In this document: positions 2,559 through 59,186 of the stretch, piece by piece
Position numbering within the stretch: position 1 is the first letter of the stretch
How the letters are laid out: every line of letters starts with the position of its first letter
Source of the DNA: Moniliella sp. 'wahieum'
Taxonomy: Eukaryota
DNA length: 60,142 nucleotides
Assembly: GCA_003971905.1 (NCBI GenBank)
Contig: RSEE01000050.1
Span: 434,001 to 494,142, forward strand
Direction of reading: 5' to 3'
Translations under genes and position numbers: made by a program
The notes under the pieces: model-generated
Database searches by the model: none
What the model saw: the letters and a program-made list of their open reading frames with translations, nothing else
Told to the model about the DNA's origin: nothing

Positions 2559-4071
2559 GGTGGCGATGATGGTTGGAAGGAAGAACAGGAGGCAGGTGTG
2601 GCGTCAAGGACATACTATCGCACCTTGGTTTCCGCAGTTTTCAAGGCAAGGGGGAGGGTAGCAAGAAGATAATGCGAAGAACCAGGTACCGGCGGGCAGA
2701 TATCCGACTGATAGACATGTCGCATGGTCTTGCGGTCTGTCGTCCACAGAGTGGGCTGCTACCTCTCTCGCGCCTCACGCATCACGCGTGCGGCTGCACG
2801 CCTCCGTGCGACTATGTACGGGGATATAACCGGCTATCTGGAGAGAATGCAATGATGTCAGATATGCGAGCATTACGCCATGGGTTAGGCCAGGGTCCTC
2901 GCAAGCAGCCCGGCGACGTTAGGCAGAGGGGAACTGTCCACAACGCTGCCGCTGATGCACCCTGCGAGCACACGGGGCCAGAGCAGCCTCCAAGGGCTTA
3001 TCTTATCTGCGCCACAATCTTATGGTCACCACAGTGCTGTCCATTACCGGTTACCCATTACCCGTGAGCCAGTGTGCGGCTGTGGCGCTTGCTCTCTATG
3101 TCTCAGATACGAGTAATAGCAAACCACTGCTTTTCCATATTCAACGCAGGGAGGGAACCTATGTTGCAATCCCCATATCGATATGCGCACGGTTCGCACT
3201 TGCCTTCACATTGAAGGGATACGCCATGGTCCCCTATGGCCCTATAGGCCATTGGGCCATTTAAGGCTTAGGCCTTAGGAAGGGCTTAGGCCCCTGTGGA
3301 TTGGACGAAGACCTTCAAGCTTCACCCATCATGCACATCATGCATCATGCATCACTATCAGTAAGTCACTAATAGTCCTAGTCACTCGGTACAAGCGGCT
3401 CGTGCGAGTGCCTTGAGATACCATAGTACTGCGATTTAGGACTCTGAGAGCATGACAGCCAGACTACGGGTTCCCGCCGCTTCACCCAGAGTAGATTTAG
3501 CGCCCACAAGCGGAGTCCGTGGCACCTGAAGCGTGAAGTGAAGCACCTCTCCTAATAGGACTGAGCCTCGGCTGTGAAATGACTCGTCACGCGTCATCAT
3601 ATTCTTCTGACATGTGACACTGCCTCCGACTCTCTTCGCTAATACCTTCTTCTTTCGCTCACCACAGCAATGAATCCCTATCAAGATCATATGGATTTTG
3701 CCTCATCTCCTTTTCGCTTGGTACGGGATCCGATCGTATCACTAATAGCACCAACGTGAGCTGGTGGATAGATAACAAGACCACCAGCAAAAAAAGTAAG
3801 TTGAAATCTCTTCTTCTCTTTTGCTCTCTTCCACGCCTCGCTCGCCTAGGTGGCCCGCTGCCTTTTTGGACCCGAAGCACGTTGCACTTTCTCTTGCAAC
3901 TGTGTGGGTGGCTCAAACCATCTCATCTCTATACACCCGCGATAGGGCGGTGTGCAGCACCGGCAAACAGATATGATGGCCCCGAATGACCATTGTGTGC
4001 GAGATGAAGCCTGAAGGATGGGACCGATTAGGGTTAAGACATCTGTATTCATCAGACGTAACTATCATTAG

Positions 4072-4545
4072 TAGTTGAGCTGATCTTGCTCCCATTTCCA
4101 ATTTCTTCGTCCCAACCGTCTCGCTCTTTCCCTGTTCTTCCACTTCTCGCCATACCCGCTGCTTCTGCTTCTCTTCCCCACGAATGATAATGTCACAATC
4201 GGGGCTAAGGCGAGGGAGACCAGAGTCGGGACTAGGCCATGGGATGAAGCAATCGTTCGTGGGGAGGAAGCCAAAGGAAGGACATGGTGCAAAGTGGAAG
4301 AAACAGAGAAAAGGGGAGACGCACGGGAGAGAGAAATTGGAAATGGGAGCGAGATCAGCAAAACTATGAAAGCAACAGTCGGAGATAGTCGAGGGAGACC
4401 AAAAGGTCCTGTCGGAGACGGTGGAATTGGCAAGATCATTCGTGGAAGGAAACGAGAGGCATCGGACAGATAACAGAAGCGCAAGGGAGAGGAAAGAGCG
4501 AGATACACGGGATGTAGAATTGGGAAGTGGAGCGAGAGCTGTCAA
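4072..4545. repeat. ~175-bp repeat family: inverted partial copy (4072-4188) plus two diverged tandem copies (~4195-4368, ~4373-4545)
   Basis: Blocks GAGGGAGACC, RTCRTTCGTGG and AATTGGRAAnnGGAGCGAG recur in both tandem units. The reverse complement of 4072-4188 aligns to 4252-4368 (ATC(A/G)TTCGTGGGGA...GAAATTGGAAATGGGAGC(A/G)AGATCAGC). Confidence 0.8.
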
Positions 4546-5482
4546 TCACGGTTACAATAACAGAGGTCCCATTGGCCACTGAGAAAAGAGGGGGAAATGT
4601 CATATTGGGGGGTCCGCTTCCGCTTTCCGGTGGAGATGAGGTGAGTTCCTCTTGGAGGTATGGAGAGAATAAGGCGGAGAATGAAGCAAGGGCCGTCAGT
4701 ACCATTGTCTTGCAGAGAGTAATTGTTGAACGGATCAACAGTTGATGATATTGACGGGCAAAAAACGATGCCGGCATATTTTCAGTTACTATAGAAGCTG
4801 AAGAGAGACGGGATCCCTGCCTTCAGTCGATCTCGGCCTCGTCTCAGTGACCTAATGAGGATCTGAAAGCTTTACCTTGCATTACCATCTCAATTGCCAA
4901 CAAAAAAGATGTGATCGTATCGACATGCCTCTTCTGTCTCTCCTTCTCTCTCACTACTTATCGAAATGCCACATGTAGCGGCGTTCCCTGTCCTGCTTGT
5001 GGCCGAAAAGCTAGACCTCTCCCACTGGATACCAAAAGTTCCCTAAACCCAGCTAGCGGGCGACTCAATAATGGACTACCACTGGGTATCTCGTCCGGTT
5101 TGGGCGACACTTCTTCCAGCAACCCAACGATATACTGGAAGGTATCAGGGTCAAAATGTCTTAGTATAGTAGCAACAAAGAGAGCCGCCCAACAGTGCAC
5201 ATATTCCGAATCGCCTTGCCACTAGAGCATCTCTTTTCTCATCATCAAGCAAGCATCAAATGCGTAGTTACTATACGGTTTCTTTCAAAGTATCGTACTG
5301 GAACGCTTCGCGGCATCCATTGCAAAACAGGTCGAACAGGGGGAACGAAACCAGGAGAGAGAAAACTGGTCAAAAAGTACTCTCGCAGCCCCCAAATGTC
5401 GCACGCCTATGCAGTGGCGAACATAGTTCCGTATATATATATCGGGCACAGAACGTCTAACAGTTGGCAACAGGCTCGCTCC

Positions 5483-7186: not shown

Positions 7187-7864
7187 GGTCCAAATGCAGG
7201 AACTTGGAATGTGGGAGGAGAGGTGCTCTAGGGGGTTGGTGGTAAACCGTCAGAGCAAGGGGGGGCGCTCTTCCTTAAGTTATACAAAGGTCTCATTTTC
7301 TGCTTAAGATAGGCTGTTTTACTAGTACATATTATTGTGCTGAGTAATAACAGGGTTTGGGGAAAATAAGGTGGGATTCAGCTGTGTGGGGGCCGAGCCT
7401 GTGTGGGGGTTCTATCGGACTGGCGCGTGAACGTGATCGTGCGACCGTGCATATGTCCAATCGGCAGCAGTATCAGCGCAAGCGCCTGTCCGATTTTGCG
7501 GGGAGCAATCCTCTTCGATGGGCTCAGCGCCGAGTCATTATATGAACGGTTGGAGGAGAGAAAATGTGCACGAGTGCAAGAGGGCAAGAGGGAAAGAGTA
7601 CGAGGGGTGCAAGTGCAACGGCCGACGGACGGGTCTACGTGAAAGAGACGGTGTCACATGTCATTAAATTGCTGACTATTCCCCCACCAAAAGCGGCTTG
7701 CCTCTCTGTGTAATAGGAATCGATCTCAGCATTATATCATGCCAATCACATTTGCCCTCCGGCCTCTCCCTTTTGGGTTGGGAGGGCCAGGGCGAGCGCT
7801 GGCGAGCCTCAAAAAACGTCAACACATCTAAGACAGTAAGACAATACAACTTTGTGGTGGCCGA

Positions 7865-7917
7865 TGACCGGTGACCGGTGACTAGTGACTTTCGAATGAA
7901 CGTTCATTGAACGTTGA
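7865..7917. repeat. 7-bp-period TNA-palindrome array
   Basis: TGA CCGG TGA CCGG TGA CTAG TGA (7865-7888), TGA ACGT TCA (7897-7906) and TGA ACGT TGA (7908-7917). Confidence 0.9.
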
Positions 7918-8419
7918 ACGTGTTAAACGCGAATATATAGGAAAGGCAGCTTCTTGGTCCGACTTGGGGCATGCTGCGATTTCTCTCTCTTCAGTCGATG
8001 AGGCCAGTAAGGCCCAAGGCTTAAGGCCTTTAAGGCCCGGCCGAGCTCGGCGATCAGGTTGATCTCTAATATCCCGCGCATGGGGCGCGCGCATGCAGTG
8101 CTGCACGTATTATATGGCGTTCCCAAATGCCCAGCTTTCACAGTCCAACAGCAAAGCCGACTTGAACACCACCGTTTTTCTTTTGGGGCTCTGTGGACTC
8201 TTATTTTTGTTGTTGGGTCCCCAGAGAGCCCTATTGTCGTGGTCCAGAGGCCTTGTGAGATTCAGGAACCCCCAACCACTGCCGCCCGAGATGACAATCT
8301 TCACCCGCTCAGGCCGGGTGGAAGGCCGGCAGAGACGACGTGCCTCTCTCCCATTGTGTGGGGTATTATGACAAGAAAAGCTGCTCCAGAAGCTGGACGA
8401 TGCCGATGGTCGCCATGTG

Positions 8420-9525
8420 GTTGAGCACAGCAACCCGCTGAGCCACACTTGGCTCTCCTCCATTCCATCCGCTCCGTGCCTCCGGCTCTCTGACAAGCAG
8501 GTTGAGGTCGGCTTCCAGCTCCACAAGCTGTGCCGCGCTTGCACTCCACCCAGGCCAAGTTTGGTGCGTTGCATGAGGCAGTCCGGGAGCCCATTCTCCA
8601 GCTCGTGCGCTCTATCCCCGACACCCACGTCCACAAGGAACCTACTGTGGAGGAAGAGGATGGAACGAGGCGCGAGCGGAGGGCACTGTGCGCACTGACT
8701 TCCGCGTGATAGGGCCTGGAGCAATCGGGGGATCAGGAATGGAGATGGACCACACGCTGCGCGACACGGGATCGCAGGAGGCGCAGAGCGCGTACCGGAG
8801 GGTGGTGCATGCGAGCACCGCGACGCCTTTGGAACGCCGGGAGAAGAAGCTGCTTCGCCCGCTGACAAGAACGCCAAGGACCAAGGACCAGGGACGCACT
8901 CAAGAGACGTTTCCCCCCTGGTTTTGACGGTGCAATGATACTACGGCACCAAGACGCGGGCAAGATGCTCGCGCTGTGGAATGATTCGACTACTGACTCT
9001 CAATGGAATGGTTCCTCTCTCAGATGTCTATCACGTTCATCCGTGTCCACACGCGCTACCGTGGGTATGGGAACGGATGCGGGGAGGGTCATGATATCAT
9101 GGCGATTCCCCTGGCTCCTTAACAGGGGTAGCGCTACCAGGCAACACACGCAAGATGAACAGGTCTTCGGTTTAGGTGTAGTGTTTCCCTGTCCCAGCCT
9201 TTTTAAGCTCTGTCAATGATATGGATAAGATACCTTTCTGATGTCCTACCGTTGCTGGAGGGTAATGCTAGGATCCCCCCCTGCACAGCTCTCAGTTGTG
9301 CCAATTGGCGACGCTCGCCTAACTAACCGCGGCGGAAGAGTTCCGCTTCCAGGCTGCACACCCAATGCTCGTTCCATCACCCTCCTCTTTCTCTTCTGTC
9401 TCCTCCCCTTCGGACGTTGCTTGAAGACGTGTGGCCCCAATTTTTTGCTTTCACGACTTGTCTCTGCTTTGCAGTTGATTCATGGGATCGTCGAGTGCTC
9501 CCAAGTCGCACTCTAGCAAAAAAAG
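8420..9525 (+). mobile_element. Degenerate 3' fragment of a CRE/Cnl1-like non-LTR retrotransposon (restriction-like endonuclease region, 3' UTR, A-tail)
   Basis: Frame-hopping translation gives WLSSIPSAPCLRLSDKQVEVG (from 8450), HEAVREPILQLVRSIPDTHVHKEP (from 8572), RTDFRVIGPGAIGGSGMEMDHT (from 8691) and LERREKK. This motif order matches my recollection of the C-terminal RLE domain of CRE-clade elements. The segment ends CCCAAGTCGCACTCTAGC-A8 (9500-9525), and its 3' part is repeated at 59187-59364. Confidence 0.6.
9095..9226 (+). repeat. MITE-like family copy (right terminal repeat only), lying inside the LINE relic
   Basis: Aligns to 20570-20697: TGGCGA..CCCCTGG.TCCTT, CGCAAGATGAAC, TTCGGTTTAG, TCCCAGCCTT, TAAGCTCTGTCAATGATATG. 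Confidence 0.8.
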
Positions 9526-9715
9526 TGTCTCTGGTTTTCATCAACCAGTATAGTTGCAAAGGTGAGATGGACAGGTGAGAATACAAAAGGCACCGAATAA
9601 AGGTGCGATACAGGGAGAAAACAGGCAAAGATCGATGAGCATAATATAGAGTGCTGTGACTTTTGAGCAGAAAATGGCCCACGTCCCTACCAGTCAACCT
9701 CCAATCAAAGCCTGT

Positions 9716-12443: not shown

Positions 12444-12615
12444 GGGGATCACGCCCGGGGCACGGCACGGCAGGCGCACAGCAGACGGAGCAGCAGCTGC
12501 GGTCGTGGCCGGGGGAGCAGGAGCCTTACCGGTTAGCCGGTTAGGCTGCAGCGCCTGCCCGCCCTGTGGAGCTGCGCTGCCAGGGGCTGCGATGCAGGAA
12601 CGCGCTGCACAAGAC

Positions 12616-12789
12616 GACGCGTCACGCGTCACAGCCCCGCCCCGCCAGCGCCAGTGTCGCCGCCCCGCCCCCTCCTTACCTCAGCCGCAGCGCCCGGTCC
12701 GGCTCACGCGTCACGCGTCCCGCAACTTAAATAACGTGGTGTACTTAGAGTGCCGGGCCATTTCAAATTTGCCTTTCAAATTTCACGTG
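12616..12789. promoter_or_regulatory. Divergent promoter between APSES gene and MET10, with ACGCGT (MCB-like) repeats and a TCACGTG (Cbf1-like) site
   Basis: GACGCGTCACGCGTCA at ~12616-12631, TCACGCGTCACGCGT at 12704-12718 and TCACGTG at 12783-12789. Function is inferred only from yeast motif knowledge. Confidence 0.4.
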
Positions 12790-13027
12790 TGGGGTATCCT
12801 GCAAATGGAACATTGAACATTGAACACGGAGTTTTTGTTATCCGGCGTGGCTTCGCCGTGCTGGCCGCCGTTGGCTGCTCAACAATAGTGCACGAAGAAT
12901 GGCGTGCTAAGAGTAAAAATAACTGCACTCGCCCAATGGGCGCCTCAACCCCTCACCACTGCCGGCTTGGGTGGCTCTTCTTCTCCCCCCACCCCCACCC
13001 CCTTCGGAGCTCCTTAGGGCCCTCGCC

Positions 13028-19977: not shown

Positions 19978-20547
19978 GGCGATATGAGCAAAAGGAGTAC
20001 GATGACGGGGTCGAAGGGAAGGCGAGAGAGAACGAGAGCAGGGGGATGCGTGCGAGATGTGCTGATGGGAAGTGCCCTTGGACAGGGTCGAGCCGGAGTG
20101 TTATATATATTCTCCACATCCGGCGCGCGGCCTCCGGATCGCCGGGGCTACTTGGGCGCACCTGTGACACCAGGTCACATGACCGGGCTCTTCTCGGCCT
20201 TTCGGTGCCCGCGCTCCGCCGTTGGCACCTCGACGGAGAGCCACGGCGGTCAGGCCTAAGGAGCGGCAAATGCAACCCCGCTCACCGTTCAAATTTCAAA
20301 GCGCATGCGCGTGTGCGCTCATGGCTCATGCTCATGCCCTCGCGGACGATGCCTGGCGACTCGGTCTGAGATCTGAGTAGCCTAGCCATTATTCCCCCGG
20401 ACGCGTAGCCTTGCTGCCGGCGACCCTCTGACACATCTCGAGCGGCCGCGCCATGACCTGCATGACCGGTAAATGTGCCCTGCCGGTGTTGAGTGAGTAG
20501 CTGGTGAATCTGCACGCGGATTTCACTATTCGACGACCCCTCTCTGC

Positions 20548-20697
20548 ATCCATATCGTTTACAGAGCTTATATCCTGGCGACCCCCCTGGTTCCTTGACC
20601 TTAGTGGCGCTTCCAAGTAACCCCCGCAAGATGAACGGTTCGGTTTAGACGTAGCGTTCCCCCTATCCCAGCCTTAAGCTCTGTCAATGATATGAAT
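20548..20697. mobile_element. MITE-like element, ~150 bp, with ~20-23-bp imperfect terminal inverted repeats
   Basis: CATATCGTTTACAGAGCTTA (20551-20570) vs TAAGCTCTGTCAATGATATG (20675-20694) are inverted with 2 mismatches in 20. The interior is repeated at 9095-9226 and ~34913-35032. No TSD is evident. Confidence 0.65.
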
Positions 20698-21876
20698 TCA
20701 AAAAGCAGTGGGACAAAAAGAGGCGCTGTTTTGTCTATAATAACCACCAGCTCTCGCTCTCAATACAGTGTGTCCGGCGTTTGGACTGCTTTTGTTCGTG
20801 CCAAACCAATAGGGATAGAGCCTCAGCCTGAGGCCTGAGAGGAGATATGGCCAAGAGAAGAAGGGTTTAGGCCTTAGGCCTTAGGGGGCAGACAAGCGTG
20901 AGCGCTTATTGTGGCAGTGATAATGCTGTGTGTGGTCGTCAACGCGTCAACAGACGCAAAGAACACAGGCTTTCAGAAAATATGGCAAAAGCTTATAGGC
21001 ACTAGGAAGCGAGTTGCCACCATGCCACCATGCAGTACCCATCAGAGGATGTACCAGCGGAGTTCTGGTGTGAAAAGTAAGATGCTTGATGGGATCCGAG
21101 ATATCTGATCGAGATCCATGAGACACACAAGAGAATATTTGACGGTCACTCGGTTCCTATATTGGTGCGATCAATGCAGCGATCAGCGCGATCAGCGCCC
21201 CCGGCCTGGACCTTTCTTCTCGGCGCCACTCGTCGAGCCTGGTACGCGATTATAGAACCCCTTCAAGCTTCGAGCTTCGCTTTAAGCTTTACTAGTTTTT
21301 TACTACGCATTAACACTTCAGTTTGGGTGTGTCAAGTATCTCGATTGGATCCAAGTCTTCTCGTCCGAGACACTACTGTTGGAGGGAAACTGGGAAACTT
21401 CTATGGCAGACACAAGCGAAACAAAACAAGCTCGCTGTTACGCTTTACTATATCTCAGTTGGCTGCAGTGTCAAAAATGCGAGTATAAGAGGAAATGAAT
21501 GCATCCACCAACACGGATCCCCCTCTGCAATACACAGAGGGTTTACTAGTCGCTAGTCACTGTTCATTACGTTCACTAGTCAAGTCACTGCTCTCTGTGA
21601 TAACACAGTGAATTCACATCTGACTTCGATCTGACTGGTCACACCAAAATCACTACTTCACTCTTCTATCTTTGCTAACCTCCGACATATCTGGAAATGG
21701 AATCACACACGTGGCGTGACGCACATTTTGCCCTCACGAATGTCCGCCATTTCACATGAAGCGTGAAGCTCCAAGTCTTGGTAGTATATAAGGCAAAGGA
21801 GGGGGCTACGGGATGGCAACGGCCGGCATAACTGTGGAGTGATTAGTAACACAAAGTGTATGATCATGTGGGTGTA

Positions 21877-22046
21877 ACAATCGGGGCTGAACGAGGGAGA
21901 CCAAGGTCCTGTCAGAGGCGGGGGGAAAGAACAAGGTCGTTCGTGGGAGGAAAAAGAAGGCAACGGGAAGAGAACAGAAGCAAAAGGAAAGGAAAGAGCG
22001 AGAGACACATGACGCAGAATTGGAAATTGGAGCGAGCTTATCAGCA
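21877..22046 (+). repeat. Dispersed copy of the ~175-bp repeat family at 4072-4545
   Basis: ACAATCGGGGCT..GAGGGAGACCAAGGTCCTGTC..GTCGTTCGTGG..GGAAAGAGCGAGA..AATTGGAAATTGGAGCGAG match the units at 4195-4368 and 4373-4545. Confidence 0.8.
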
Positions 22047-24730
22047 GCCCTCAGCCTTCTCAGACTTCAAGTTCAAGGTTCAAGACGTTCAAGGTTCAAG
22101 CTTCAAGGTTCACAGAGATGTTGGAACTCTCCTATATCCCCGACCTCTAACCTCACTTCATTCTCTTCCCTCCTGTATAATTGAGTTGTTGTGACGTACC
22201 CCGCATATTGCGCTTGAAGCTCTTGAAGCTTTTGATGCATACCATCCCACACTATCTTCGTATCGCCGACATCCGCGCCATCACACTAGTCACTAGTTAC
22301 TAGAGTTGCTATTAGCTTCAAGCTTTAAGCTTCACTGCCATCAGCACGGCCAACTTCAAGCTTCGCCTCCATCTTCTCATTAAATTAGCCATTCTAAGCT
22401 CCAGTCCACTTCCCGTCGCCCGCACAGTCCCTACAGCAGTCACATGTCACACAGACACCAGATGCAACGCGTAACTCCGCTCACAACGCGTAACGCGTAA
22501 CTAGTCACGCGAGTCACGAGAAACTCCGCCCGGTGATCAACTCGATTAACATAGTAACATTCGATTGGGTCACACGCGCGTATGCCCCCAACTCCCCGAC
22601 GTGTGTTCCCACGATGCTCGGAAGTGGCGTGTATAATGGCATCGTGACAAAACGTGACATGTGAGTGACATGAAACAAAATGTCACATTCGCCATCACAT
22701 GCAAGCCACCTTGCGTGTGCGTCCCCCAGCACATCACAGCGATCAGTCACTATAGTCATCTCACCGTCACCAGGCCACACCCGGTTTACGGAGACCATGA
22801 ATATTGAATGCGGGAGAGCAGATGAGATCGGACGGGCGGAGTAAAGAGTGATTAGTTACGAGTATAGCCATTAGTAGCCGGTATGTAACGGGTATAACCG
22901 ATCATTATTGCGGCAACTATAGCTTCTACTCATCGGTCCTCGATCTACACGCAGCGTTCCTTTGTCCCTACTGTTTGGAGTGCTGCAAATTATATGTGTT
23001 CCTGTGGTATGTAGCTCTGTCCGAATGTCTCCGTGACTCTTGCAATCCTGTTGCCTTCAAGCACCATGCGCCGCGTGCCTCTCCATGCGTTGCAGCATCT
23101 CGATCCGATCTGCTTGAACCTTTGGGATGTGTGTGCTTTGGTGTGAGGCGGGTTATCGATTTCTTCAGGTGGTCAGGCTGAGCGCCTGAGCCATGAGCAC
23201 ATGACTTGAGGCTAACGCGCTAATCAAAGCGTTAGCGGTGGACAGAAACGGATGAAGTTCTGGTGGGTGGTCGGAGGGTAGAGGTAGAGGCATGCAACAC
23301 GTACATGCATCATGTATCACAGCTTTCTTCCTGCCTATATTCCTGCGCGTCAAGCTATTAATAGCGAAACCTGGTCAACTTGCTATCATAGCCACCTAGT
23401 CGACCCTATTCACCGGTCACCGGCCGGCTGTCGCTCTCAGATTTCATATCTCAGATCTCATATCTCACATCTCATTAACTTCTTTGAACACGCCGTTTCA
23501 CAGCAGGAAGCCGCAAGGCCCTAGATCGATAGATCCCACATGATTAATGCATGATCAATGATGTTAATGATGCCTCTGTTCCATTCCCACCACCAGACCT
23601 TTTCTTAAAAGCCTTTTTAGATCTTAGATCTTAGATCCTTAGACCATCAACGCCATGGCGCCTTTTAAATGTTTAACGTTTAACGTTTAATCCGTGTGGT
23701 ATATCACACATCATTCATCACACATTGGTCGTCACATATCACATGTCACATGTCGCACGTCACACTTTGCGGCACCCTGGTCACCCGTCACCGATGAGAG
23801 CTTAGTTAGCGCTGAGGCGCTGAGGCTCGCACATGGATCACACATTCTTTGTCACCCGTTGCCCGTAGACGTGGGCACCAACACCGTCCGAGCGACGGTC
23901 AAGCCCTCGGGCCTCAGATCCTGAGACCCCGCCCGGACATGGCGACACGTTCCGATGAACGAACGCTGAACATGTTGAACTTGCTCAACGTGCGGGCAAA
24001 AGCGTCATCGATCGTCTGAGGCTCAGGCCCGAGGCACCCTACCGATCTCGATCAGACTAGGCACCAGCCCCAGAAGCTTCCAAAAGTTGCTGCCAGCCGA
24101 TAATCCACCACACAGCCACCAGCTGCACACGTCCTCTCGGCGCGGCAAAACCCAACAACCAATCCTCATCCCAACCAACGTCAACATCCAACCCCGAAGT
24201 TCCCCTCCCCCCCCTGGATCTGTCAATTTTGCTTCCCACCCCGTCCTGAGCTTCTCACTTCATTTCCTCCTCTCTCCCCGGCCTCTGTCATCAATAGGCG
24301 CCTCTCACAATTTGGACCCCTCTCATCATCCCAAGCCCGTCGGACACCATTGACCTCTTTCCTCTCACCCCTTCTGGCTTTGATCCCTACTGCCTCACCC
24401 CCCCTCTCCGACACTACTGGGAGCTGGGGTCAGCTTCAAAAGCCATCGCCCATCCTTTTTGTTCTCTGGTCAAGCTCTCAATCCTCCTTCGCGGAACGTC
24501 GCTCTTCAATCACCTGGTCCTTGGGAGCGTCCCTGCTCCTGTACTTTGGTACCATTCGAGTTCCCAACCCCTCGTTACCTATCTAGCGTTACCACATTCT
24601 TCCTACTCTTGGCGACCACTCTGCTAGTCACGATCCGCACCTCATCATCCTTCCCCTCAACCACTTCATCTCCGACTTCCCTCACCATCACCTTCCAAGA
24701 CCATGCATTCGCACCCCGGAACTCCGGACG

Positions 24731-32333: not shown

Positions 32334-32979
32334 GGCGCAGGGGGGGGAGGAGGGGGGCGAGGGAGGGCGCGGAGAGGCGAGTGGTGAGGGGCGAGGCAAC
32401 TGGGCCTGAGGGCAGACACGCAGGTGTTGGCGTTTAGCCGGGAGCGGCTAAGCTGATGGCTGGCCTCGGCTGGCGCGTGGAGGAGGCAGGTGGTGCTGCG
32501 GGCGGAGCCAAGAGCAGCTGTGTGCACACAATCGGCCGCGGTGCGCGCCAAGTTGAACGTTCAAGCAAAGGTGAACGCCGAGCCTCGGCGCCAGCGGAGC
32601 AGCCAACGTCCAACGCCGATTGACGGTTTGGTGGATGGGCTTGCAGCTGGCGGCTGGGCGAGCTTGCGCTTAGTGCCTGGGTCCTCGGCCCTCTTGGCTA
32701 GGCACGAGGCACTCCCGAATTGCCCGGCACTTGCTCCCCGCCACGCGCACCCGCCCCGTAGTGCACCAGTGACTAGGGTCTCCGCCCACCACCCTGCTCT
32801 CTCAGATCTCAACCTCCCCGCGCTCCTCCCAATTGTGCCTTGATCCAGTCCCTGCCAGTCCCTGCCCACGCCCTCCAGTGGCCATCGGCCGGCGGCCATC
32901 TACGCGCCACGCCCTGCCACGCCGCCCCCATCACCATCACCCCATGCCCCATGTCACATGTCACATGCCACGGTCGCCC

Positions 32980-33003
32980 TCACGCGTCACGCGTCACGCG
33001 TCA
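32980..33003. repeat. 7-bp-period array TCA(CGCG TCA)x3
   Basis: Read directly from the sequence. Confidence 0.95.
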
Positions 33004-34912
33004 CGTGCCATCCCATCACCCTCTGCGCCGCCCTTTACTCTCCGATTCAGACTGAGCTACCGGCATGCTACCCACTCCTGGTTGCAGGCTACGTGGTACC
33101 GGCTGCTGCTTGCTGGCTACCGGTTCCCCCGGTTACCAGCTACCCTCCCGCAGCACACACCCTGTGCCGATTGCACCAATATCCACCACCTTCTCCTATC
33201 CACGATCCCGCCTTTGTGGCGCCGTCTCATCGATCAACAAGTCCATGCCAGGCCGCGACAGGCAGACAGAGGCCGCCCTAGGCCGTCACGCTGTTCATTC
33301 CAGCTGCGTCCCACACACAACTGCCCACCGGATGTCCCACACCAGCGGGCACCAGCACACACCAGCCCACACCCAGCCCCCCGCCGCAAAATTCCTGCCG
33401 TCGATCTTGGCCGCAGACGGCCCTGCCAGTACAGTCCCCGTGTTGGCCCGTTCCAATTTCAAAGGCTAGCAGTTGCGATGTCAAACGTTCAAAGTTAGCG
33501 TGCCCACGCTGAGCGATCGCTGATCGATGAGATGCAACAGGTAAAAGAAGAAGCGAGGATCTAGCCACAGGGCCAGTATAGGTTGGTCGTGTTGGTCTTC
33601 AGCTGCCCGCTCCGTCCTTCGGCCATGTCCGCAAAAGTCAGCATAATCGCCACCATCCCTCCGCCCCCATCTTCCACCACCACCCACCCACTTTGCCCTC
33701 AAGACTCAGGGACCTAACTCAGTACTCACTCCTCCTTGGCCACTACCCAAGACCACCGGCCAACGAGCCTAGACCCACTACCCATATACCACTTGACCAT
33801 TTCTCTTTGGCTGATGCCTCCAGTCGGGCCTCAGTACTCAGTCTGAGTACTGAGACTCAGTATGCATCTGTTTTCTCCCCATTCTGTCTGCGCTGCATCC
33901 GCACAAGCCTGCAGGCCCGATTTGAGACTTCTCCACGTTCAACACATTCAACACGCAATGCGCGTACATTGAACATACTGAGCATTACACTGAGTACTGA
34001 GTACTGAGTCGTGAGTTCTTATTAGTGGTCCAACAGAGGATGTTGGAAGGCAGGTATTGATCTCGTTAAGGTACACCTTTTCCCCCAAATATGAGCTAAG
34101 CCGCTGGTAATGGTGGTACGCGCGAGCTCCTAGAGAGCAGCTTCGACGCCCCACTGAGCACTGAAGGCTGGAGCCGGTGGGAATCGAGTGGGTCTGCAAG
34201 ATGGATTGAGCCAACTCACAGTCTGAGCGCTCAGGAAAAGGTTTATCAGCGAAGAATCCACCCTTGCAGTCAGGAATCCGGGAGGCCTCTCATGATCTCA
34301 TCGTCGATGTCATCAGCTGCATCAACCAGAGAGGGAGAATGCGGGAGACTATGCGTTTTCGCCCTTCTGCTACAGCTTCTGCCCAACGTGCGTGCTGAGA
34401 CTTATTGCCGCGTCGCGCGTCAAGCGGCAAGCTTCAAGTGAGACGCCTCCGCTGCTTTCCTAATGTAGCCTCTGTTCTTGCTCTGGTTGCGAGGGTTGTG
34501 TCTCACTTCTGCTTCTACTCCTCTCGCTTCTCGCCGCTGTGTTTTTGTCCCTCTTTTCTGCTCTGGGCATGCTCCGCTAATATGCCCATTTCCTAGTCAG
34601 TTGCGGACACCGGAGCGGCCATGCAGGTTCCACGTTGCACACGAAGACATATACTACCTCAGGCTTCAGCCGCTCACTGTTAACATGTAACACACTAGCT
34701 CGGACGCCGGCCCCTTTTATCACTCAGGAAAGCGTCGCGGCAATTCGGCACTGGCTTGGATTGTTTATACCGCCTTTTATGCCGAGTGGATCTGTTGGGA
34801 CTTTGAGGGGTGTAGCTCCGTTCCTGAAACACTGTGTGGTATACAAGTTGGTATACCTTAACATGCATAATCTCCCTCAAGCAGGTGGCGCGCAAGACGG
34901 TCACAGGTTTGT

Positions 34913-36933: not shown

Positions 36934-38412
36934 CAGGCTGCCACGGCGTGCCGAGTGGGTGGCACTCGATACAGAGTGGGCACTGTGGGAGCGGACAAGG
37001 CGAGTGTCGTGGGGGCAGCAATCATGTTTGCTTGCTGGCGAGTGCGAGCAGATCTGGCAACGGGAGGGGGACGACAGAGGGCAGTACACAGTACTGCTGT
37101 GCGTTGGCGGGGGGAAGGGGAAAGGGGAAGGAGGAAGGGGATAGGCAAAAGAATGTGTCTCGCAGCGGAGAGGCTGCAGGGGCGGGGCCGTGTAACGGGC
37201 GCGGGAAAGGGAAGTGGAAGGGGAAGGGGAAGGAGAGGAGGAGGTGGGGTGGTGGAGAGGATCAAGTGGGGAGATGGACAAACGGAAGGGATTGGTTGCG
37301 GCCGCTTTGTATGGTTGGGCCACACACGCCGTCTGCGAGCGCACGCAAGTGTGGGTCAGAATTCGATGCGCACTGGGGCCTTCTAACCTTACAACGAGGC
37401 AAAAGCGCTAAACGCACTGAAGGCCTTAAGCGAGCTGATCGGTGGTGGGTGATGTCCACCGATGATTGTGGGCTAGCGACTAAGTGAAGTGTGACATGTG
37501 ACACATGTGACATGAGACAGGCACCAAGTGACTGTCGGATACCGCGTACCAGCCATCCGCCGTGGCGCGTGGCAATATGTAGCTGATCGGCCCTCGGCAC
37601 TCCAGGCTCCAGGCTCCAGGCTCCAGGCCTCCAGGTACTCCCATCGGCTAGCGACCCTATCACCTATCGACAACGCCAGGCTCAGGTATTACTCAGTACC
37701 CCATGTGGCATGCTCACGCGCTGATGCCTTTGGTACGTTTCGCGTTATGCGCTACACGGAACGCGTAACCGCTTTGCCCTGTCTCCTGGTCACCTGGTCA
37801 CCGACCGTCGATCACCGATCATCGCCGTTGCGGGAGTACGTGCCGGCACGGGCGAGATCTGCAACGACGGGGCAGAGGATGGGGAAGTTGCACTGCTTCC
37901 CTTTGGGTGGCATGCACCTGATATTCATATTCACCGCTCAGGGCGAGAGCGAGTCGAGTACTCCTCAACGTCTCTCAACGTTCAGTACGTTCAACGTTCA
38001 ACGAGTACTGCGTACGTTGTGTACAGAGTATATATCAGAGAACATTTTTGCTACAGCGGCTACTGGGTAGTGACGTCCTGGTCCACCCGGCTATGAAGAC
38101 CGCAATGCAATGGCTCTCAAGCGTAGGAGAGTAGGCGATCGATTGCGGGCGGGATATAGGCGTTGGTTCGTGGGAAGCAGGACGAGGGCTACAGGAGAAG
38201 GCCACTACTGGTCGTTGGCTTGCTTACGCGCTTACGCGGGTACGCGCGCATCATGCATCTGCATCAGCAGTCTTCGCAGCCCGCGGTGCCACGGTGCTAG
38301 TGAGCTAGTGAGGCTTGAGGCCGGCAGTGCGCCGCGATCGGTGAAGCCAGTCACCGTCGCAACAACGGGCTTGCTTCTCTGATGTTGTGCACCCAGTCTT
38401 GGATACGAGTAG

Positions 38413-38433
38413 TAACTAGTAACTAGTAACTAG
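38413..38433. repeat. 7-bp-period array (TAACTAG)x3
   Basis: Read directly from the sequence. Confidence 0.95.
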
Positions 38434-39803
38434 GAAAAGGGGAAACACTGTTGTGAGCCTGAGGCCTGAGGCTCAGGGCCTGTAACCCTGAGGGTGACCG
38501 GTGACCATCCTGCTTCCGTGGCCTCAGGCAGGGGCTCCTCAGGCCTCACATGCCTCTTCCAGCCTGGGCAATCCTACTCTTCATATCTCAGAAGGCAAAA
38601 AGAAGCCCCAAGCAAACTGCCTGTGATGATCTCTATCTAGATCATGCAATGTTCGATAATTAAGCTTGAAGCTTTAAGCTTAAGCTTTAAGGTCAGTATC
38701 AATGAGGCTGCAAAGTCACGGAACGGGCATGGGGCAGTGTACACGTTGAAAAGCATCGAGCACATGTGGGTGCAATCATAAGGCCGATCTGTCACGCGTC
38801 ACGGTCCTCTTGTAGTTTAATCGCGTTATAATTAGGTAAACCTCCTCAGATCTCTCAGATCTCACAGCTCTCCGCCGAACTTGTTTCCTTCTCTCTACTA
38901 GTTGTTACCGGTTACCAGCGCATCCTTTGCTTCCCTTGGTACTTGGCTGGCCGTAGCAGCGAAATAGCAACGCGCAACGTGCACGCAGCTTCGAGCTTCC
39001 AGCGTCAAGCGTGACTTAGCGTTTAACCCTAGGGCCTCGCCCTCCATATCTCACGATCTCACATTTCGTGTAAACATGTCACATGTCACGTGTCACCCTG
39101 CGGGCGCCGTCGTTCCGATCCTCAAATTGGCTCGAACGAGATCACATGAGTGCATCGGTCTTGTGCGAGCCCAAGCCATCAGATGTATCGACCGACAGCA
39201 TGTCGGAGCGCTCGGAAGACAGCCACAAACCTTATTGTGCGAACAGGATATGCGTGCCGGCGTTGTTAATTGTTGGGGGTCCCTTTGGCACTTCCGGGTA
39301 CTGCGGGGTACTGCCTCTTCTTCCTCTTCAGCGAAGGGTGTGGCATGTGATGCATGTGATTGGATAGCACAACACAAGCGCCAAGCCTCTCTATTAGTCT
39401 CTACCACACAAAACGCCTTCGAGAGCGCCCGCGGGTACACAATAAAAAGGGTTACAAACATTGGATACCTGCCACTCCGGCTATTTAACTGATTGCCTCT
39501 GTCATGCATGTCCCTGTCCCCATATCCCCTTCTTCAGATCTTTCTTCAGACTTCACGTTGAAGCTTCAAACTTCAAGCTTCCCTTATTTCTTCTCTCGCT
39601 TTGCCTCACATGCTCACACCACTTCGACCCATCTCGATCGTCATCGATCATCGATCATCTTCCTGAATCGTGATACACCGTGTGAACGGCACTTAGCACT
39701 TAGTGCCCAGTACTCGGCACGATCATTTGTATCCACTTCGCATCGGTTGTAGACAAGCAATTAACGTCTCTGGGAAAAATGAATTGCCACGATGGGGAGG
39801 AGC

Positions 39804-44272: not shown

Positions 44273-45587
44273 TCAGGTATGGGCGATGACTGATGGCTCA
44301 GCTCGTCTCTGGAGTGTCCCCGGTGGATTCTGCCCTGCCATTTGGCGATTGATTGGGGCCAACTCGTCCTCTTCCCACAATGGCAGCTCGGGGTAGGCAC
44401 GCTTGACGTTGTACTCGGCGCCCATGGCCATGAGACAAATAAAAGGGTTGGTGACAAGTGCAAGAATGCCACCGTAGGTGCACTTGATCGCTGGGCCGAC
44501 CCAGGTGTGGGCCATTTGGTGGCCAGTCCAGATGGGCGCGACAATGCATAGGGAAATGCCCCAGAAAGGGGCCCAGACCACCAGCGCCGAAATGCCAAGG
44601 CCCTGAACAATGGTCCAAAGGAAACGCTGACAGCGCTGACCAAAGCTGACGGAAGGTGCAAGGATATCGTTGCGCTCGGTACCACAGAAGATGAAGCGAA
44701 CGAACCAAAGGCAAAATGCTTTGAACCAGCCCGTTTCGGAGGTGACAAGTGGGCCCATGGGAGGGTCTGTCCCGCCGGCACCTGGGAGGGCAAGCGGGTG
44801 CCCAGGAACTTGGTGCCTTGGGGCTGGGAGTGGAAGGAAGATGCAACAAATAGGCCAAGGCCGGCTCAGAGGAGCCACCACACCCTTATACACGTCACGA
44901 TGGACCATGGTGGAGGTAGATGACATAGGTGACAGTGCCCTGAATGAGGATGGTAACTGCCATGTCACCGGCAATTGTGTTGTCTTTGAGTTTCCACATA
45001 GTGATGTTGTTATCTGAGTTTTTACGATACATGGCGCAGGCGATCCCTCCAAAGTTGGCACCGGCCGAGATGAAGACGGCACCAATGATGTGAAAGATAA
45101 GCAAGTACCAACCTTGGGGTGTGGAGGCTCAGCGGTCCAGGGATGCGCCACATCTGCCACCAGGAGGGCTTGACTGGGTTAATGGTGCCACTGTCGGGGA
45201 AGGGCGCGCCAAAGGCAAGCTTCTTGCCTTTGAGGCCATACTCTTCAGGTCGCTTGGGCACACCACGGCGGGGAACACCCTCGTCAAAGACGGGATGTGG
45301 GGGCTGCTGCTGTTTCTCTACATCTGAGGCGGCAGCACTGGGAGAGGTTGGCGCCGAGGGCAGAGGGGCGGCCAAGGTAGGCTGGGGCGTGTTGTTGGAG
45401 GCGCTATTTGGAGGTGGGACCTGCAACGTTGGCTTGGGCGGGGTGGGATCAACGAGGGTGGCGGCGCCCTCGGAGGCGCGCGGTGGGGGGGCGTGGGCGT
45501 CGGGGCGCCGGAGCGGGCGTCGACAAAGACGTCGTTGGCGGATGACGAGCGGGACGACGGGCGGGTGTCCATGTCAGGCGCCGTCAT
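44273..45587 (-). CDS. Fungal multi-pass membrane protein, DUF2456-like; frameshifted
   Basis: IFHIIGAVFISAGANFG(I)ACAMY..TMWKL..NTIAGDMAVTILIQ and VWAPFWGISLCI..TWVGPAIKCTYGGILALVTNPFI. The family call is from recalled similarity and needs an HMM check. Confidence 0.7.
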
Positions 45588-45873
45588 GGCAGCGCAGGGA
45601 GGGGGTGGTGGTGGTGAAGCGCAGGAAAAATCAGACGCTTGTCGCTTGGAGCTTGCTGTCGCACCAGGTGACCACAGTAGCCTGGTGCGGCTCAGCGTAA
45701 TGAACGTGGTCGTCTGGTACGTGCCCACAGTGCGTAGCGTAGCCACAACCTGAACGAACCTACGCTGTGATGTGCAGGATGCATGATGCATGATGTTTGT
45801 CTGAGCGATCTGAGCAGCAAAAGCCCTCCGCCCGTCGATGATCGCAATGACCAATCGATCGTCCCATGATGTA

Positions 45874-45897
45874 TGATGCATGATGCATGATGCATGA
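45874..45897. repeat. 7-bp-period array TGA(TGCA TGA)x3
   Basis: Read directly from the sequence. Confidence 0.95.
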
Positions 45898-46114
45898 ATC
45901 AACAATTAATCAGCTTTCATTATTTGTGCCTGGCCGATCCGTCGGGGTGCTTGACGCGTCACGTGTCCGTGACATTTGAAAGGGCCAGCTGTCGACGGCG
46001 TACGTAAGTCCGCGTGGCGCACTCCGCTCGCTCTGGTCGGTACACTCAGGCGGCCTGCACGTCCCTTTGGCAACCGCACTGGCCGAGGCCACCCGATTGG
46101 CCCTCCGCCTCGCC

Positions 46115-47017
46115 ATGGACACCGCCGCCTCTGCCGCGCTCCCGCAGCCCATCGACCCGCTCCACGCGCTGCTCCTCCGCCAGCGCGCTCTCCACGCATT
46201 TGTCCACGGCCCCCCCTCCGCCCCCTCCGCCCCTCCTCCGCCTCCCACCGCGCCCACCGACACCGACACCGCCACCGCTACCCCCACCCTCGCTGCCCGC
46301 ACCGCCCAAGCCAGCGCGCTACTGTGGGAGCGGGCCCAGCAGGACCCTGTCCTCAGTGCCTTTCTGGCCAACTGTACGTCTGCCCCTCACTCCTCCACCT
46401 CTTCTCACGCACTGCCAGGGCGCAGGCTCTGACGCACCTCCGGCCCATGCTCCAGACGCACGCGACCAAGCCTACCTCTCTCCCGAGTTTGTCTTGTCGG
46501 GCCATGTGCCCGACGAGGACACGCGCCCGCGCCGCCCACAGAGCCCAACTGAGTCTGCTGGTGGAAATGTTGCCGCAATGGAAGGAAGTGGCGCGCCAGC
46601 TGGAAGAGTGCAGTTTGTTGGACAAGCGCGACGTACTTACCCTCCGCGTACCCGCTCCGGCTCTGGAGCCTACCTCCTCCCGGCCGCCCGGGCCGCGGCG
46701 CCCTGCCAGCCGAGCAAGGCATGCCTTCCTCCGACTCGCTGGATGGCGTCGATGCCCGGCCGCACACGACAGAGCAAGTGCTGGAGGACCTGGCACGCCG
46801 GCTCGCGCAGTTGGACACGGACGTCCTGGCGGGCCTCCGGGCCGACTCGGTCGAGTTGGAACAAGAGATGAACTCCCTCTTGGCATCGTATGGCCAGTAT
46901 GTGGATACGGTGAGCGAGTTGTGTGTCCAGTGGGACCAAGCGCTGTACGCGATGGAACGGCAGGTCACCCAGCTCGAGGCGCAGCAGCGACGAGTCGAGG
47001 AGGCCGAGACGTTATGA
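46115..47017 (+). CDS. Dynactin subunit 3 (p22/p24, Ro-10)-like coiled-coil protein
   Basis: LLLRQRALHAFVHG, FLAN|YARDQAYLSPEF (intron 46374-46455) and C-terminal LLASYGQYVDTVSELCVQWDQALYAME, resembling the DCTN3 LLxxY..SxxFVQWD motif. Confidence 0.68.
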
Positions 47018-50992: not shown

Positions 50993-52005
50993 GGCGGGCA
51001 GGCGGCTTGGTGGGGGCGGTGCGGAAGGCAGCGCAGGTGGTTAGACGCGGCAGAGGCGCTCTGGCCGCCGGGCGGGCGACGTCGTCTACGCGCCCGACGC
51101 GAGCCGAAGGAACGCGTCCCCAACACTGCGCCCGTGCCGCTAGGGTTCGGCCATCGCGTGTGGGTGGCTGGCCCAAGTTGAACGTTCATATTACCCAGGC
51201 TGGGAGGGATTAGTGATTCGTGGCCCACCAGTCTACGCCCGCTCCGGCCCACACCTTCGACCTTTGTTTGACACGGCCGTGGTGAGGTTAGCCGCGCATT
51301 GGCCAGCTCTGGCTCTTTTTCGCGGCTTCCAACTTGGTCAATGCGGCCGGCTGCTTTCGGGATGCATTCGGTATGTTCGCTGGCTTCTCTTCTCGTCGGC
51401 CATCACATGTCATGCATGTCACAGCCGAACCATTCTTCACTCTCTGCTATCGTCGGCAACTCCGACAGGATCACAGCAGGGCGGTACTTGTCCCCTAAGA
51501 AACTCATAGCATTCCAACGCATACAGACCTCACACGTGGACCTGGCAACAAAGGGGCCCCACTTCCCCTGCAAGCCATACAGACTCAGCACGAGAAACGG
51601 GCTGGATCTAGGACTCTGCCTTTGCGAATGCACGGGGGCCACAAGGTCCCCACGCACCGGGCACCTGCACTACCAAAGGGACTCGCCCACCACCAGGGCA
51701 GGCGGCAGGCTAAGCCTCCCGGGAGCCAGGCCCTGAGAGAGATAAGTGCTCTCCTCGCCCTTAAGAGCCCAACCTCAAAACGAAACACAGCCATCAGTAC
51801 CAACAGACAAGGGACACTAAACACAAAAAAACAAGACCAAGCAAATCGGCCGGGGAAGTAGATGCATAGATGGGGTGGATTGGATCACCACCGTTTTGAG
51901 CCACTCTCGGTCTCGGTCATAGTGCCCCGTCTCGGGATCCGCTCAACAGCATGTGGGGCACAAGAGCCCGACAAGGGAAAGAACCACAGGCAAATTCGAG
52001 CCAAG

Positions 52006-56000: not shown

Positions 56001-58125
56001 GCCCCAGTAGGTCCGAGTATTTGGTCGCAATCTGCACCACCACAGCCAGTTCTGGCGGATGTTGACCTTCAGCATCTCTTTCATGCACTCGAAGCTCTGC
56101 TCGACAGTGAGTCGCCCAAAGTACTCCACGAGCCACTCCGTGTTGATCTGGACGTGTGCACCACGACCCGCTTAATATCACGAATGTCATCATAGTGTTC
56201 AAGCGCACGCTGTAGTAGCCCGGCCTTCTCAGCCAAGTTGGCGATGCGAGGACGGTCGTAGTGGGTAAACATATTGTTGCCCAAATAGCGTCCGCGACCT
56301 GGGGTGCATTGACCAGGTTCATCTCCAACAGACGCGTCTGAAGATGGCCTTGCTCAGGCTTGTTGTCCTTGAGCGCGTCCAGAAGGAACGATGTGGCCTG
56401 CTGGATCATGTTTTGGCTCATAAAGATGTCCATCAACCCGCTCACATCCACCAGCGGGCCCGATTCGTCCTGCACGAGCGTCGATGCGAATTCAGCACCC
56501 TTCTCGGGGTCCCGACGGACGATATGCTGCAGAAGCGTCGCATAGTCCGGAGTGTAGCCCACCTTGCGTGCACAGTACAATCTTGTCAACTTGACCCAGC
56601 TCAGCCATCGAAGCAACAACCTTATTGGGCACGTTGGCTCGAAGGTAGATGCTAAGCGCCAGGCTCATGTCGCTAAGGCGGACGATATCACCCAGCTCCT
56701 CAGAGCATTCAATCTTGTCCTCAGTCAGCCACTTCTCCAAAAGGTGCTTGCGGCCCTGCTGCAGCACCGGGCGGGCAAGTTCCAGCGACTCGTATTTGTT
56801 AAGGCTTCCACGTCGAGGAGAATGCCAAAGTACTGAAGGATGGGGCTGAGGGTGCCCTGCTTGCCGGGACCTGCTTGAACTTCTCAATTGTCTCGGTGTT
56901 CGAAGAATGCCACGAGGACTGTTCGCTGCAGTTTTGGCTGCCTCGCCAAACTGGCCAGAAGCGAACAGTTTGTTGAATTGCTGAAGATACAGGTCATCCG
57001 CCCCTGGCAGGTTGCCCCCGACGCCAACTTAAATGCGAGTTGAGTGTTGTTGAGCGTGTTGAGCGTGTAGGGCACCAACGTGTTTTCGTCGGCCGCCACT
57101 GACAAGACCTGGCCCTTACGGTTAATGGCGATGATACCGCTCATTGACTCGTATGGCGCCGAGGTGAATACTGTCTCGCCAGATATGCGGTTCATGTAGA
57201 TGCACGTCCCGACTCCAGGTCGTAAAGATGTACAAAACCGTACTTCGTAATCAGGTAGATGATCCCGAAACGCTTGCTGATCTGCATGGCGACGGGGAAG
57301 TCATTAGCCGCCTCGGGGGGGAAACACGTCGACAGCCTTCTTGGCAAACGCAGGCTGGCCTTGCTGGTGGTCAATTTCGACAATGTGCAGGCGGGCGCCC
57401 GTGGCAGTGCGGACCGAGAAAGTGAAGAGTTTTAGGGGTCGGAGCATCATCCGTCTTCAGTTCGGCAAAAGCTGCGGCGTGACCCTCGATGGCTGGGACA
57501 CATTGAGGCGCTTATTGTAGAGCTGGATGTTGCCCTTGATCTTGAAACCCCCAGGGGTGTTGCCCGAAATACCCACCAGGACCATCCATTCCGCATCGGC
57601 GGTGGTGCGGTAGTTATGATTTGGGAGCCGACGAGAGATGCATGACGGTCAAAGACCTTGGTCGGGTCTCCCTCGACCTCCATTGGCCAATGGTACACGG
57701 CGTGGGCGGTGACGATCCGAGGGTGACTCACTGATCCAGGTCCAGTAGACAACATCCTCGTTCATCACATGACTCTTGACTTTAGTCTTGGCTTCTATGC
57801 TGAATATCTGCAGCTGACGGCCCGCCTTGAGGGCAAGGATGCGCTGAGTGGGGTGCATGATGGCCGAGTCGGCGGTGATGGGCCGGCGGAGGCTGCAGAG
57901 AGGAAGAGAGCAACGAGGGTTAGCTTGCTTATGGATGGGAAGGAAGATCATCACGCACACATTGCTCACGTCATTGAGGTCGACGATGACCACGGAGCCA
58001 TCTTCACGAACGCAGACAAAGTTCTCAGACTCAAGGGTGACCGTAGCGAAGGAGATGGCCTCTGGAGCGACGCCCAGACTGGTGAGCTGGACGTGCTCGG
58101 AGAAGACGATGGGCTTGTCGGCCAT
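53098..58125 (-). CDS. CHC1: Clathrin heavy chain; frameshifted
   Basis: [93 protein letters not shown] and a PTG-repeat tail. Intron 57893-57958. Confidence 0.97.
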
Positions 58126-59186
58126 GGCGGGCGCCGTGGCTGACGTAGAAGGAGGGGATGGGGCGAGGGAGCGGCGGCGCCGGGCAGAGGGAAGGAGACT
58201 CGGGCGCGCTGGCCGAGAGGTGGTGGAGGGCAGAAGAAGCGACGCCGGGCTGCTGTGGCATGTCGACGGCCACGCCACACAACCAGCGCGTCACACACTG
58301 GCCGCTTGCCGCTTGCCGTCTGCGCTCCCTTGCGTACCGTGCTCCACGTCGAGGGTCACCCTTACCCGCGCGTGATGGTCAGGTGACCCAGCGCAGCTGA
58401 GGCGCTGGGGCTCAGCACGCGTTCCGCCGGGCACAGCGGAACCAACGTTGAACGTTCAAGTTGAATCTCTTTATTCCATGTTCGAGCAGGCAAAAGAAAT
58501 GTGCAACCCTACTGCCCGCCGACCACGTGACGGGTGGGTGGGGCTCGCCAATGATCGGGCATATGACAGAGTCGCGTCGACGCGTCCCTCCACTACCTTA
58601 AAAGGGGAGCGGTTGTGCAAGATAACCGAGTAACCGTGGCACAAGGCGGAGTGGTGGGGAGCCAGGAGGAGATGTGAAGAGCAATTGGGGGTATTTGCCA
58701 CAACGATACGGGGGGGGACAAGAAGAGGAGGGGGGGGGCAAAGGGGATCAGCGGAACAAGGGAGGGGATGGCGCGGACATGCCTTTGGGCTTGAAGCCGA
58801 GGTGGCCGCACGCTTGCAGGGCTGCGTATGCGCCGGCTTGGGGTAGTAACGTAAGGAACCCACGCCATGTGCTGTGGTAGGGGGAATCGACGCCGCTGAA
58901 GGAAGGCTCGCGCGCGACTGGGCAGATGGAAAGCTGCAGGACGAGGTTGGATGATGAAGATGATGCAGCTAAGTGGAGACGAGAGGTTGCCTGTATTACT
59001 GAATCATTGGCTGGAAACGTTCAGGAGTTGGACAGGAAGGCGGGAAGGGACGAGAACGAAGGTGGGATAAAGGATTCCCACTGATCGATGATGCTGACTA
59101 TTGGTTGACCCCTTTTGGTAACCCCCTCCTCATCTCTAAGCCCCATCACACTGGCAATAGTTTGACAGAGCGAAGCAGATGAAGCT

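Follow-up and report, generated by a model that had tools for sequence, protein, structure and literature searches.

TNA-spaced palindromes upstream of Moniliella genes: flank-templated duplications that may be excision scars of a hairpin-forming transposon

The intergenic DNA of Moniliella sp. 'wahieum' raises the question of how a rule of symmetry, rather than a particular sequence, can come to be written into a genome. In a 60,142-nucleotide stretch of this fungus (GenBank assembly GCA_003971905.1, contig RSEE01000050.1, positions 434,001 to 494,142 of the forward strand), the whole of which is called the window below, a 4-bp palindromic core is repeatedly found between two TNA triplets, often in chains with a period of 7 bp. 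A preliminary description of the window, made from its letters alone, listed 55 such sites and proposed several origins for them, among which were a mutational process, the footprints of a transposase and a chromatin factor that reads DNA structure. The analysis described here finds that the core is templated by the bases flanking a duplicated TNA, and that the product resembles a joint between two DNA ends, each of which had been closed into a hairpin.

All 55 coordinates listed earlier are exact for TNA, the palindrome named and TNA, and the N is the same in both triplets at 44 of them. Window-wide the pattern occurs 93 times at 73 loci (58 single, 15 chained). The background was taken from Markov simulations of orders 1 to 6, 100 of each. 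Orders 1 to 4 yield means of 6.4-8.4 matches and never more than 17, which bears out the suspected enrichment; the expectation is 16.6 at order 5 and 31.5 at order 6. The enrichment is tied to the flanking triplet. The ratio of palindromic to non-palindromic cores is 93:132 (0.705) for TNA and 0.03-0.10 for the other 15 XNY classes. In the negative-control DNA (56.6 kb from five unrelated metagenome loci of eukaryotes; clathrin N-terminus 42-49% identical), only 3 TNA-flanked cores are palindromic and 118 are not. It is also tied to a period: TNA pairs with the same N peak at spacings 7, 14 and 21 (138, 75 and 65 pairs over a baseline of about 40, taken from adjacent spacings), and a smaller peak stands at spacing 9 (71 pairs; baseline near 40). 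Fourteen of the 16 possible cores are present, TATA and TTAA being absent. CATG, CCGG and CGCG lead, and no single core exceeds 11 of the 73 loci, in agreement with the earlier view that the lattice is not one transcription-factor motif.

The sequence of the core follows from its surroundings. A target pqTNAwx is converted into pqTNA-core-TNAwx with a net gain of 7 bp; the core is wx·rc(wx) if copied from the right flank and rc(pq)·pq if copied from the left, rc denoting the inverted (reverse-complementary) copy. The core is thus either the two bases after the second TNA joined to their inverted copy, or the two bases that precede the first TNA with their inverted copy placed ahead of them. 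Of the single loci whose two triplets share N, 43 in all, 14 agree with the left flank only, 14 with the right flank only, 7 with both and 8 with neither, so that at least one flank fits at 35 of 43, against a chance expectation of 12% (p = 4e-25). The cores had been called interchangeable; this holds in that many are used, but a core is not free, since it is set by the flanking dinucleotide. Counted over both strands, the 12-mer TNAwx + rc(wx) + TNAwx is present 81 times where 0.2-0.7 would be expected. 12-mers of this form number 125 when all flank classes are taken together, and 81 of them have TNA. Together, the templating by the flank and its specificity for TNA uphold the claim that an active mutational process generates the lattice.

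When all 138 same-N pairs at spacing 7 are sorted by this rule, 24 are right-templated, 19 left-templated, 19 symmetric (the two sides being indistinguishable), 5 plain and 1 doubly inverted; 70 are unclassified. The first duplication at TNA is therefore seldom a direct copy, as 5 direct-only cases stand against 43 one-sided inverted-templated ones. A unit made of TNA and a palindrome is found in 61 of the 174 exact period-7 runs, where about 3% would be expected of a random heptamer by our own arithmetic. Both results support the earlier statement that the lattice is no ordinary microsatellite. The cores vary from site to site because each derives from whichever dinucleotide adjoined the target TNA, C being mildly preferred. 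Of the 35 reconstructed targets, 30 have C or G as N, and weak preferences for G at -2 and C at +2 are seen as well; this base bias accounts for the lead of the C-starting cores CATG, CCGG and CGCG and for the lack of TATA and TTAA.

The length of the duplicated unit was established from a second class of product. Eleven exact nnTNAnn 7-mers are doubled around a 2-nt spacer (+9), and in 9 of them the spacer repeats in inverted form the outer two bases of the same 7-mer; the same relation holds for 9 of 49 spacers in the other 15 centre classes (Fisher p = 1e-4). In addition to the plain 7-bp duplication in Table 1, duplications without filler and with TNA central begin at 22071 and 22087. In the +7 class the second copy has kept 5 of its 7 bases. 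As the +9 class carries the complete 7-mer, what is duplicated is a unit of 7 bp with TNA at its centre, and the joint has 0-2 inverted bases on each side; the filler repeats a flank in inverted form, and both flanks are used equally. A 5-bp duplication with two inverted bases was considered and rejected: it gives the same +7 product, but leaves the +9 class with its complete 7-mer unexplained. A single +11-like case was seen at 21619-21636, where TCTGACT occurs twice with the 4-nt palindrome TCGA between the copies, half of this filler being explained by the rule.

The duplications are restricted to upstream intergenic DNA. The preliminary description placed all of them outside coding sequence, which is approximately right: 66 of the 73 loci fall in nine upstream-type intervals (21.5% of the window), drawn from a Pfam-based gene map when the array positions were already known, so that their boundaries are not blind. 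The loci that lie outside number 7, equal to the chance expectation. For loci that obey the rule perfectly the figure is 47 of 49. Each of the nine intervals borders one or more genes on their 5' side. Perfect units cover 5.2% of this DNA, and units with up to one violation cover 9.9%; the intervals 51190-51880 and 58300-59190 contain no perfect unit. Open reading frame (ORF) length is a noisy proxy for coding sequence, as ORFs of at least 150 amino acids cover 67% of the window and contain 23 of the 73 loci. The longest ORF, 25042-26658 (538 amino acids), has marginal matches to PAS and zinc-knuckle domains, and a CATGATG duplication is found at its start (25074), probably in a 5' leader.

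A transposase footprint is the reading that best accommodates a retained 7-bp duplication with inverted flank bases, as had been suggested. On balance the lattice is likely to represent the accumulated excision scars of a cut-and-paste DNA transposon of the flank-hairpin type with a 7-bp nnTNAnn target. We infer the element itself, the hairpins, the 2-nt position of the nick and the ligation by overlap from the form of the scars. In the proposed pathway the element would insert at nnTNAnn, where N is mostly C or G, and duplicate those 7 bp. Its excision would leave both flanks as closed DNA hairpins, and host enzymes would open each of these by a nick 2 nt away from the tip, producing the 4-nt palindromic 3' overhangs wx·rc(wx) and rc(pq)·pq. 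This position of the nick is familiar from the biochemistry of hairpin opening by Artemis. The two overhangs would then be overlaid in full register and ligated, and repair or replication would retain only one palindrome of the pair, with TNA on each side of it, so that the site would grow by 7 bp. Less often one hairpin would be opened at its tip, leaving either the full 7-mer twice with two inverted bases (+9) or a plain 7-bp duplication. Each scar would constitute a new symmetric nnTNAnn site, and repeat visits, possibly with slippage, would lengthen scars into short heptamer arrays.

Ligation by overlap would yield +7 without trimming or synthesis, use both flanks equally, produce the +9 and plain classes upon opening at the tip and make the arrays self-extending. 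Hairpins probably take part in scar formation. Nor would many copies of the element be needed. Since each cut-and-paste hop leaves one scar, rough arithmetic indicates that a low-copy element hopping about 1e-4 times per generation could account for the density of scars over the neutral lifetime of a 12-mer.

Several observations weigh against this interpretation and are given together. No candidate element with an nnTNAnn duplication and inverted ends was found within the window, and a Pfam scan of the 233 window ORFs of at least 110 amino acids (E <= 1e-4) gave no match to a transposase family. A candidate terminal motif for such an element shows no enrichment, with 10 matches where 13 would be expected. 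No insertion or excision polymorphism was seen, and the two paralogous repeat pairs that were aligned in the window contain no 7-bp indel. The scars show great uniformity and density, with roughly one in every 200 bp of upstream DNA, unlike the heterogeneous scars that have been documented. Target duplications measure 8 bp in hAT elements (nTnnnnAn), 8-10 bp in MULE elements and 5 bp in Transib; the 7-bp unit found here does not match the canonical 8 bp of hAT. The overlap model predicts that the bases next to TNA pair with each other, and they do so in 11 of 28 one-sided events (p = 0.07), which is only suggestive. Finally, some heptamer arrays have no TNA at all, do not fit the scar rule and are not explained by it: CTCCAGG x4 at 37600-37628, GAACAGG x3 at 27920-27941, CCAAGGA at 8874-8890 and GCCGCTT at 58301-58318. 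These were made either by slippage or at another class of target.

The systems to which the scars bear the closest likeness are those in which the flanking DNA forms hairpins, namely hAT, Transib, MULE and RAG, whose ends are joined with footprints (PMC5499845). As in the footprints of hAT (Ac/Ds, Hermes), MULE (Muta1) and Transib elements, both copies of the target duplication are kept at the empty site, and the 2-nt inverted flank copies at the joint resemble the P nucleotides that V(D)J joining leaves at coding joints. A nick made 2 nt from the tip of a hairpin yields a palindromic overhang of 4 nt. The scars in the window are far more uniform and denser than the flank-hairpin footprints reported, and they build tandem arrays. 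In rice, 94 excisions were recorded over 63% of two genomes; both duplication copies were kept in 8 of the 94, and most carried deletions or filler (PMC4423477). That study treats transposon excision as a genome-wide source of small indels, and the window has 73 loci of one rule in 60 kb by comparison.

Target duplications of 7 bp are reported in Basidiomycota for hAT7 of the Pucciniales, which groups with fungal and plant hAT elements including Ac and Tam3, and for the KDZ element Kyakuja of Laccaria bicolor (PMC12730594). The part of that source available mentions neither a target consensus nor a footprint for them. Neither element was found in the window, and their hosts are related to Moniliella at the level of the phylum only. 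For the element T1 of Cryptococcus, the text available states neither a target motif nor the length of a duplication (PMC9942834). CNIRT6 (3-bp duplication), CNEST (TA) and KDZ1-3 (4-8 bp) were considered as well, and none offers a 7-bp match in the part of the source available (PMC12810828). No description of such a genome-wide lattice was found in the literature covered, most subscription journals and supplements lying outside that coverage.

The particular transposase first suggested, one of the PIF/Harbinger type, does not fit. PIF/Harbinger and IS5-type elements share T-N-A in their targets, but what they duplicate is the 3-bp TNA or TWA; the canonical Harbinger duplication is 3 bp (PMC12730594), and excision of mPing is often precise (cited in PMC4423477). 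Such an element would leave a core unrelated to the flank, whereas the unit found here is 7 bp with a flank-templated core, and same-N TNA pairs number 50 at spacing 3 (baseline about 40) versus 138 at spacing 7. A 3-bp TNA duplication with 2 nt left behind from each end of the element was ruled out for the same reason, that flanks predict cores.

The transposon could be dispensed with altogether if a nuclease of the host, such as a domesticated transposase, cut nnTNAnn sites in accessible promoter DNA with a 7-nt stagger and left hairpin-capped ends from which repair wrote the +7 and +9 products. Such an element-free process is unlikely, yet it would suit a window without an element or a transposase match, the location of the scars upstream of genes only, and a density and uniformity beyond those of documented transposon scars. 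The difficulty lies in the number of events. A 7-bp duplication with an inverted filler requires two of them, the fill-in of a staggered cut and then the opening of a hairpin, and a single cut provides one; insertion followed by excision supplies both naturally, which counts against a single-cut nuclease. To our knowledge no host nuclease with such behaviour has been described, and none was searched for.

Errors of replication or repair might also do without a programmed cut, if template switching or fold-back synthesis at TNA made an initial copy both inverted and direct, and slippage of hairpin-prone heptamers followed. Period-7 repeats are in general excess (444 5-mer repeats at distance 7 versus 112-130 at distances 5, 10 and 11), and arrays without TNA exist. 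The extension of identical units, as in the TCACGCG chain of Table 1, could reflect either repeat visits or slippage, the two not being distinguishable. Slippage, however, makes no inverted 2-nt copy, and it leaves unexplained the specificity for TNA (81 of 125 rule 12-mers), the complete 7-mers of the +9 class (9 of 11) and the chains in which the core changes with the flank. In the nested chain at 7865-7888 the last core switches to the one set by the new right flank, and slippage therefore cannot produce that chain. Other periods, moreover, are practically devoid of such units: TNA with a palindrome is found in 1 of 82 runs of period 5, 3 of 133 of period 9 and 1 of 73 of period 11. An origin in replication or repair error is accordingly held to be improbable.

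A selected function would require that TNA-spaced promoter palindromes be needed by a dimeric DNA-binding protein or for a DNA structure such as a cruciform or the exclusion of nucleosomes. The arrays do lie upstream of genes, both of their dyad axes are real, and a distinct palindrome, described below, recurs near gene starts. A function of this kind would nevertheless have to accept 14 cores whose usage loosely tracks the dinucleotides beside TNA and which the flank predicts in 35 of 43 cases, and it would have to be served mostly by single units (58 of 73 loci). The decay of the units is neutral-like: beside 81 perfect rule 12-mers, one violation is found in 105 forms where 7.5 are expected, and two violations in 221 where 101 are expected. 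The excess of one- and two-violation forms beside perfect ones indicates that the process that makes them is both long-running and recent. Selection for a function is thus very doubtful as the source of the lattice, and nothing in the analysis supports the structure-reading chromatin factor of the preliminary description. A sequencing or assembly artefact may be dismissed, since the rule is strict, tied to local flanks, confined to intergenic DNA and found beside intact conserved genes, and we know of no artefact that yields such a pattern.

The distinct palindrome mentioned above is TTGAACGTTCAA. It lies close to the 5' ends of genes, at 32553-32564 (kinase), 58448-58459 (clathrin), 51178-51189 (SMC; one mismatch) and 7896-7907 (P450), and three of the copies share the flanks (C)CAA(G/C)GT. 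With up to two mismatches TTGAACGTTCAA has 15 matches against 1.6 expected, although many of the 15 are scars. The palindrome itself is not a duplication scar, because its two TNA triplets have complementary N. Its core, GAAnnTTC, presumably resembles a heat-shock-element dimer.

A broader statement may be put forward tentatively, as a possibility somewhat short of an even chance: a single hairpin-forming cut-and-paste system with an nnTNAnn target, either an undescribed transposon family or a transposase retained by the host, would have written an appreciable part of the promoter DNA of this fungus, 5-10% of the upstream intervals in the window, and would be the main source of the fungus's heptamer tandem repeats. 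Excision scars are usually rare and messy; here one rule covers about one third of the period-7 repeats (61 of 174) and 5-10% of upstream DNA. Excision, or a domesticated version of it, would then supply the whole genome continuously with new cis-regulatory sequence, and would be the mechanism by which a class of tandem repeats is born. The scars would be a readable record of the past positions of the enzyme and a natural map of the access of a transposase to promoters, and sequence alone would show how a fungus opens hairpins and joins ends. The reading would also call for caution in the search for motifs, since what looks like a palindromic promoter 'element' can, in this lineage, be a mutational scar.

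Table 1. Examples of each class of duplication and the upstream-type intervals that contain perfect loci (window coordinates; gene strand in brackets; scar is used in the sense of the proposed pathway)
Feature	Position	Sequence or neighbouring genes	Perfect scar loci
Single +7 scar, right-flank type	3044..3055	TTACC + GG + TTACC; core CCGG = CC + inverted copy	
Single +7 scar, left-flank type	12620..12631	CGTCA + CG + CGTCA; core templated by left flank	
+9 scar	20452..20467	CATGACC twice, TG between = inverted copy of first two bases; flanks not repeated	
+9 scar	45800..45815	TCTGAGC + GA + TCTGAGC; flanks not repeated	
Plain 7-bp duplication without filler	20317..20330	GCTCATG twice, TCA exactly central	
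Nested chain	7865..7888	TGA-CCGG-TGA-CCGG-TGA-CTAG-TGA; new right flank CT	
Chain of identical units	32980..33005	3.7 units of TCACGCG	
Mixed chain with indel	38660..38691	TTA/TGA + AGCT units	
Upstream-type interval	2900..3700	5' of amino-acid permease gene (-)	6
Upstream-type interval	7300..8100	5' of P450 gene (-)	3
Divergent promoter interval	12480..13000	KilA-N/ankyrin gene (-), FAD/NAD reductase gene (+)	3
Large divergent interval	20150..23950	Glutathione peroxidase (-), PAS-domain ORF (+); most of the +9 class	14
Upstream-type interval	32560..34800	5' of protein kinase gene (-)	7
Interval between genes	37410..39800	Cyclin gene 5' end, Mtr4 helicase 3' end	12
Divergent promoter interval	45180..45970	DUF2456 gene (-), unknown ORF (+); includes array 45865-45897	2

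The gene content along the window is fungal. The Pfam-based gene map comprises an amino-acid permease, a P450, a KilA-N/ankyrin protein, glutathione peroxidase, a protein kinase, a cyclin, the Mtr4 helicase, an SMC protein, a member of the ribosomal protein S19 family and the clathrin heavy chain, all of them conserved genes. In a protein search whose length range excluded full-length clathrins, the best named matches of the clathrin are from basidiomycetes, Sparassis (52-54% identity) and Tilletia (49-52%).

Dispersed non-coding repeats with 68-79% identity were noted in three pairs: 4374-4536 with 21876-22036, 9094-9226 with 20570-20697, and 9332-9518 with 59186-59364, the last pair inverted and with 34 gap positions in its BLAST row. 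They are possibly the remnants of an old repeat family, for example pieces of solo long terminal repeats. A 65-nt inverted repeat (4072-4136 and 4302-4366) lies in intergenic DNA downstream of the P450 gene; its arms are 80% complementary and are separated by 165 nt. Low-complexity tracts rich in G or C are present at 32119-32381, 37110-37278, 46204-46288 and 17704-17722 and contain AGGGGC x5, GGGGAA-type and CCCCCTCCG-type repeats and a run of 19 G. These tracts adjoin ORFs or lie inside them and are unrelated to the TNA lattice.

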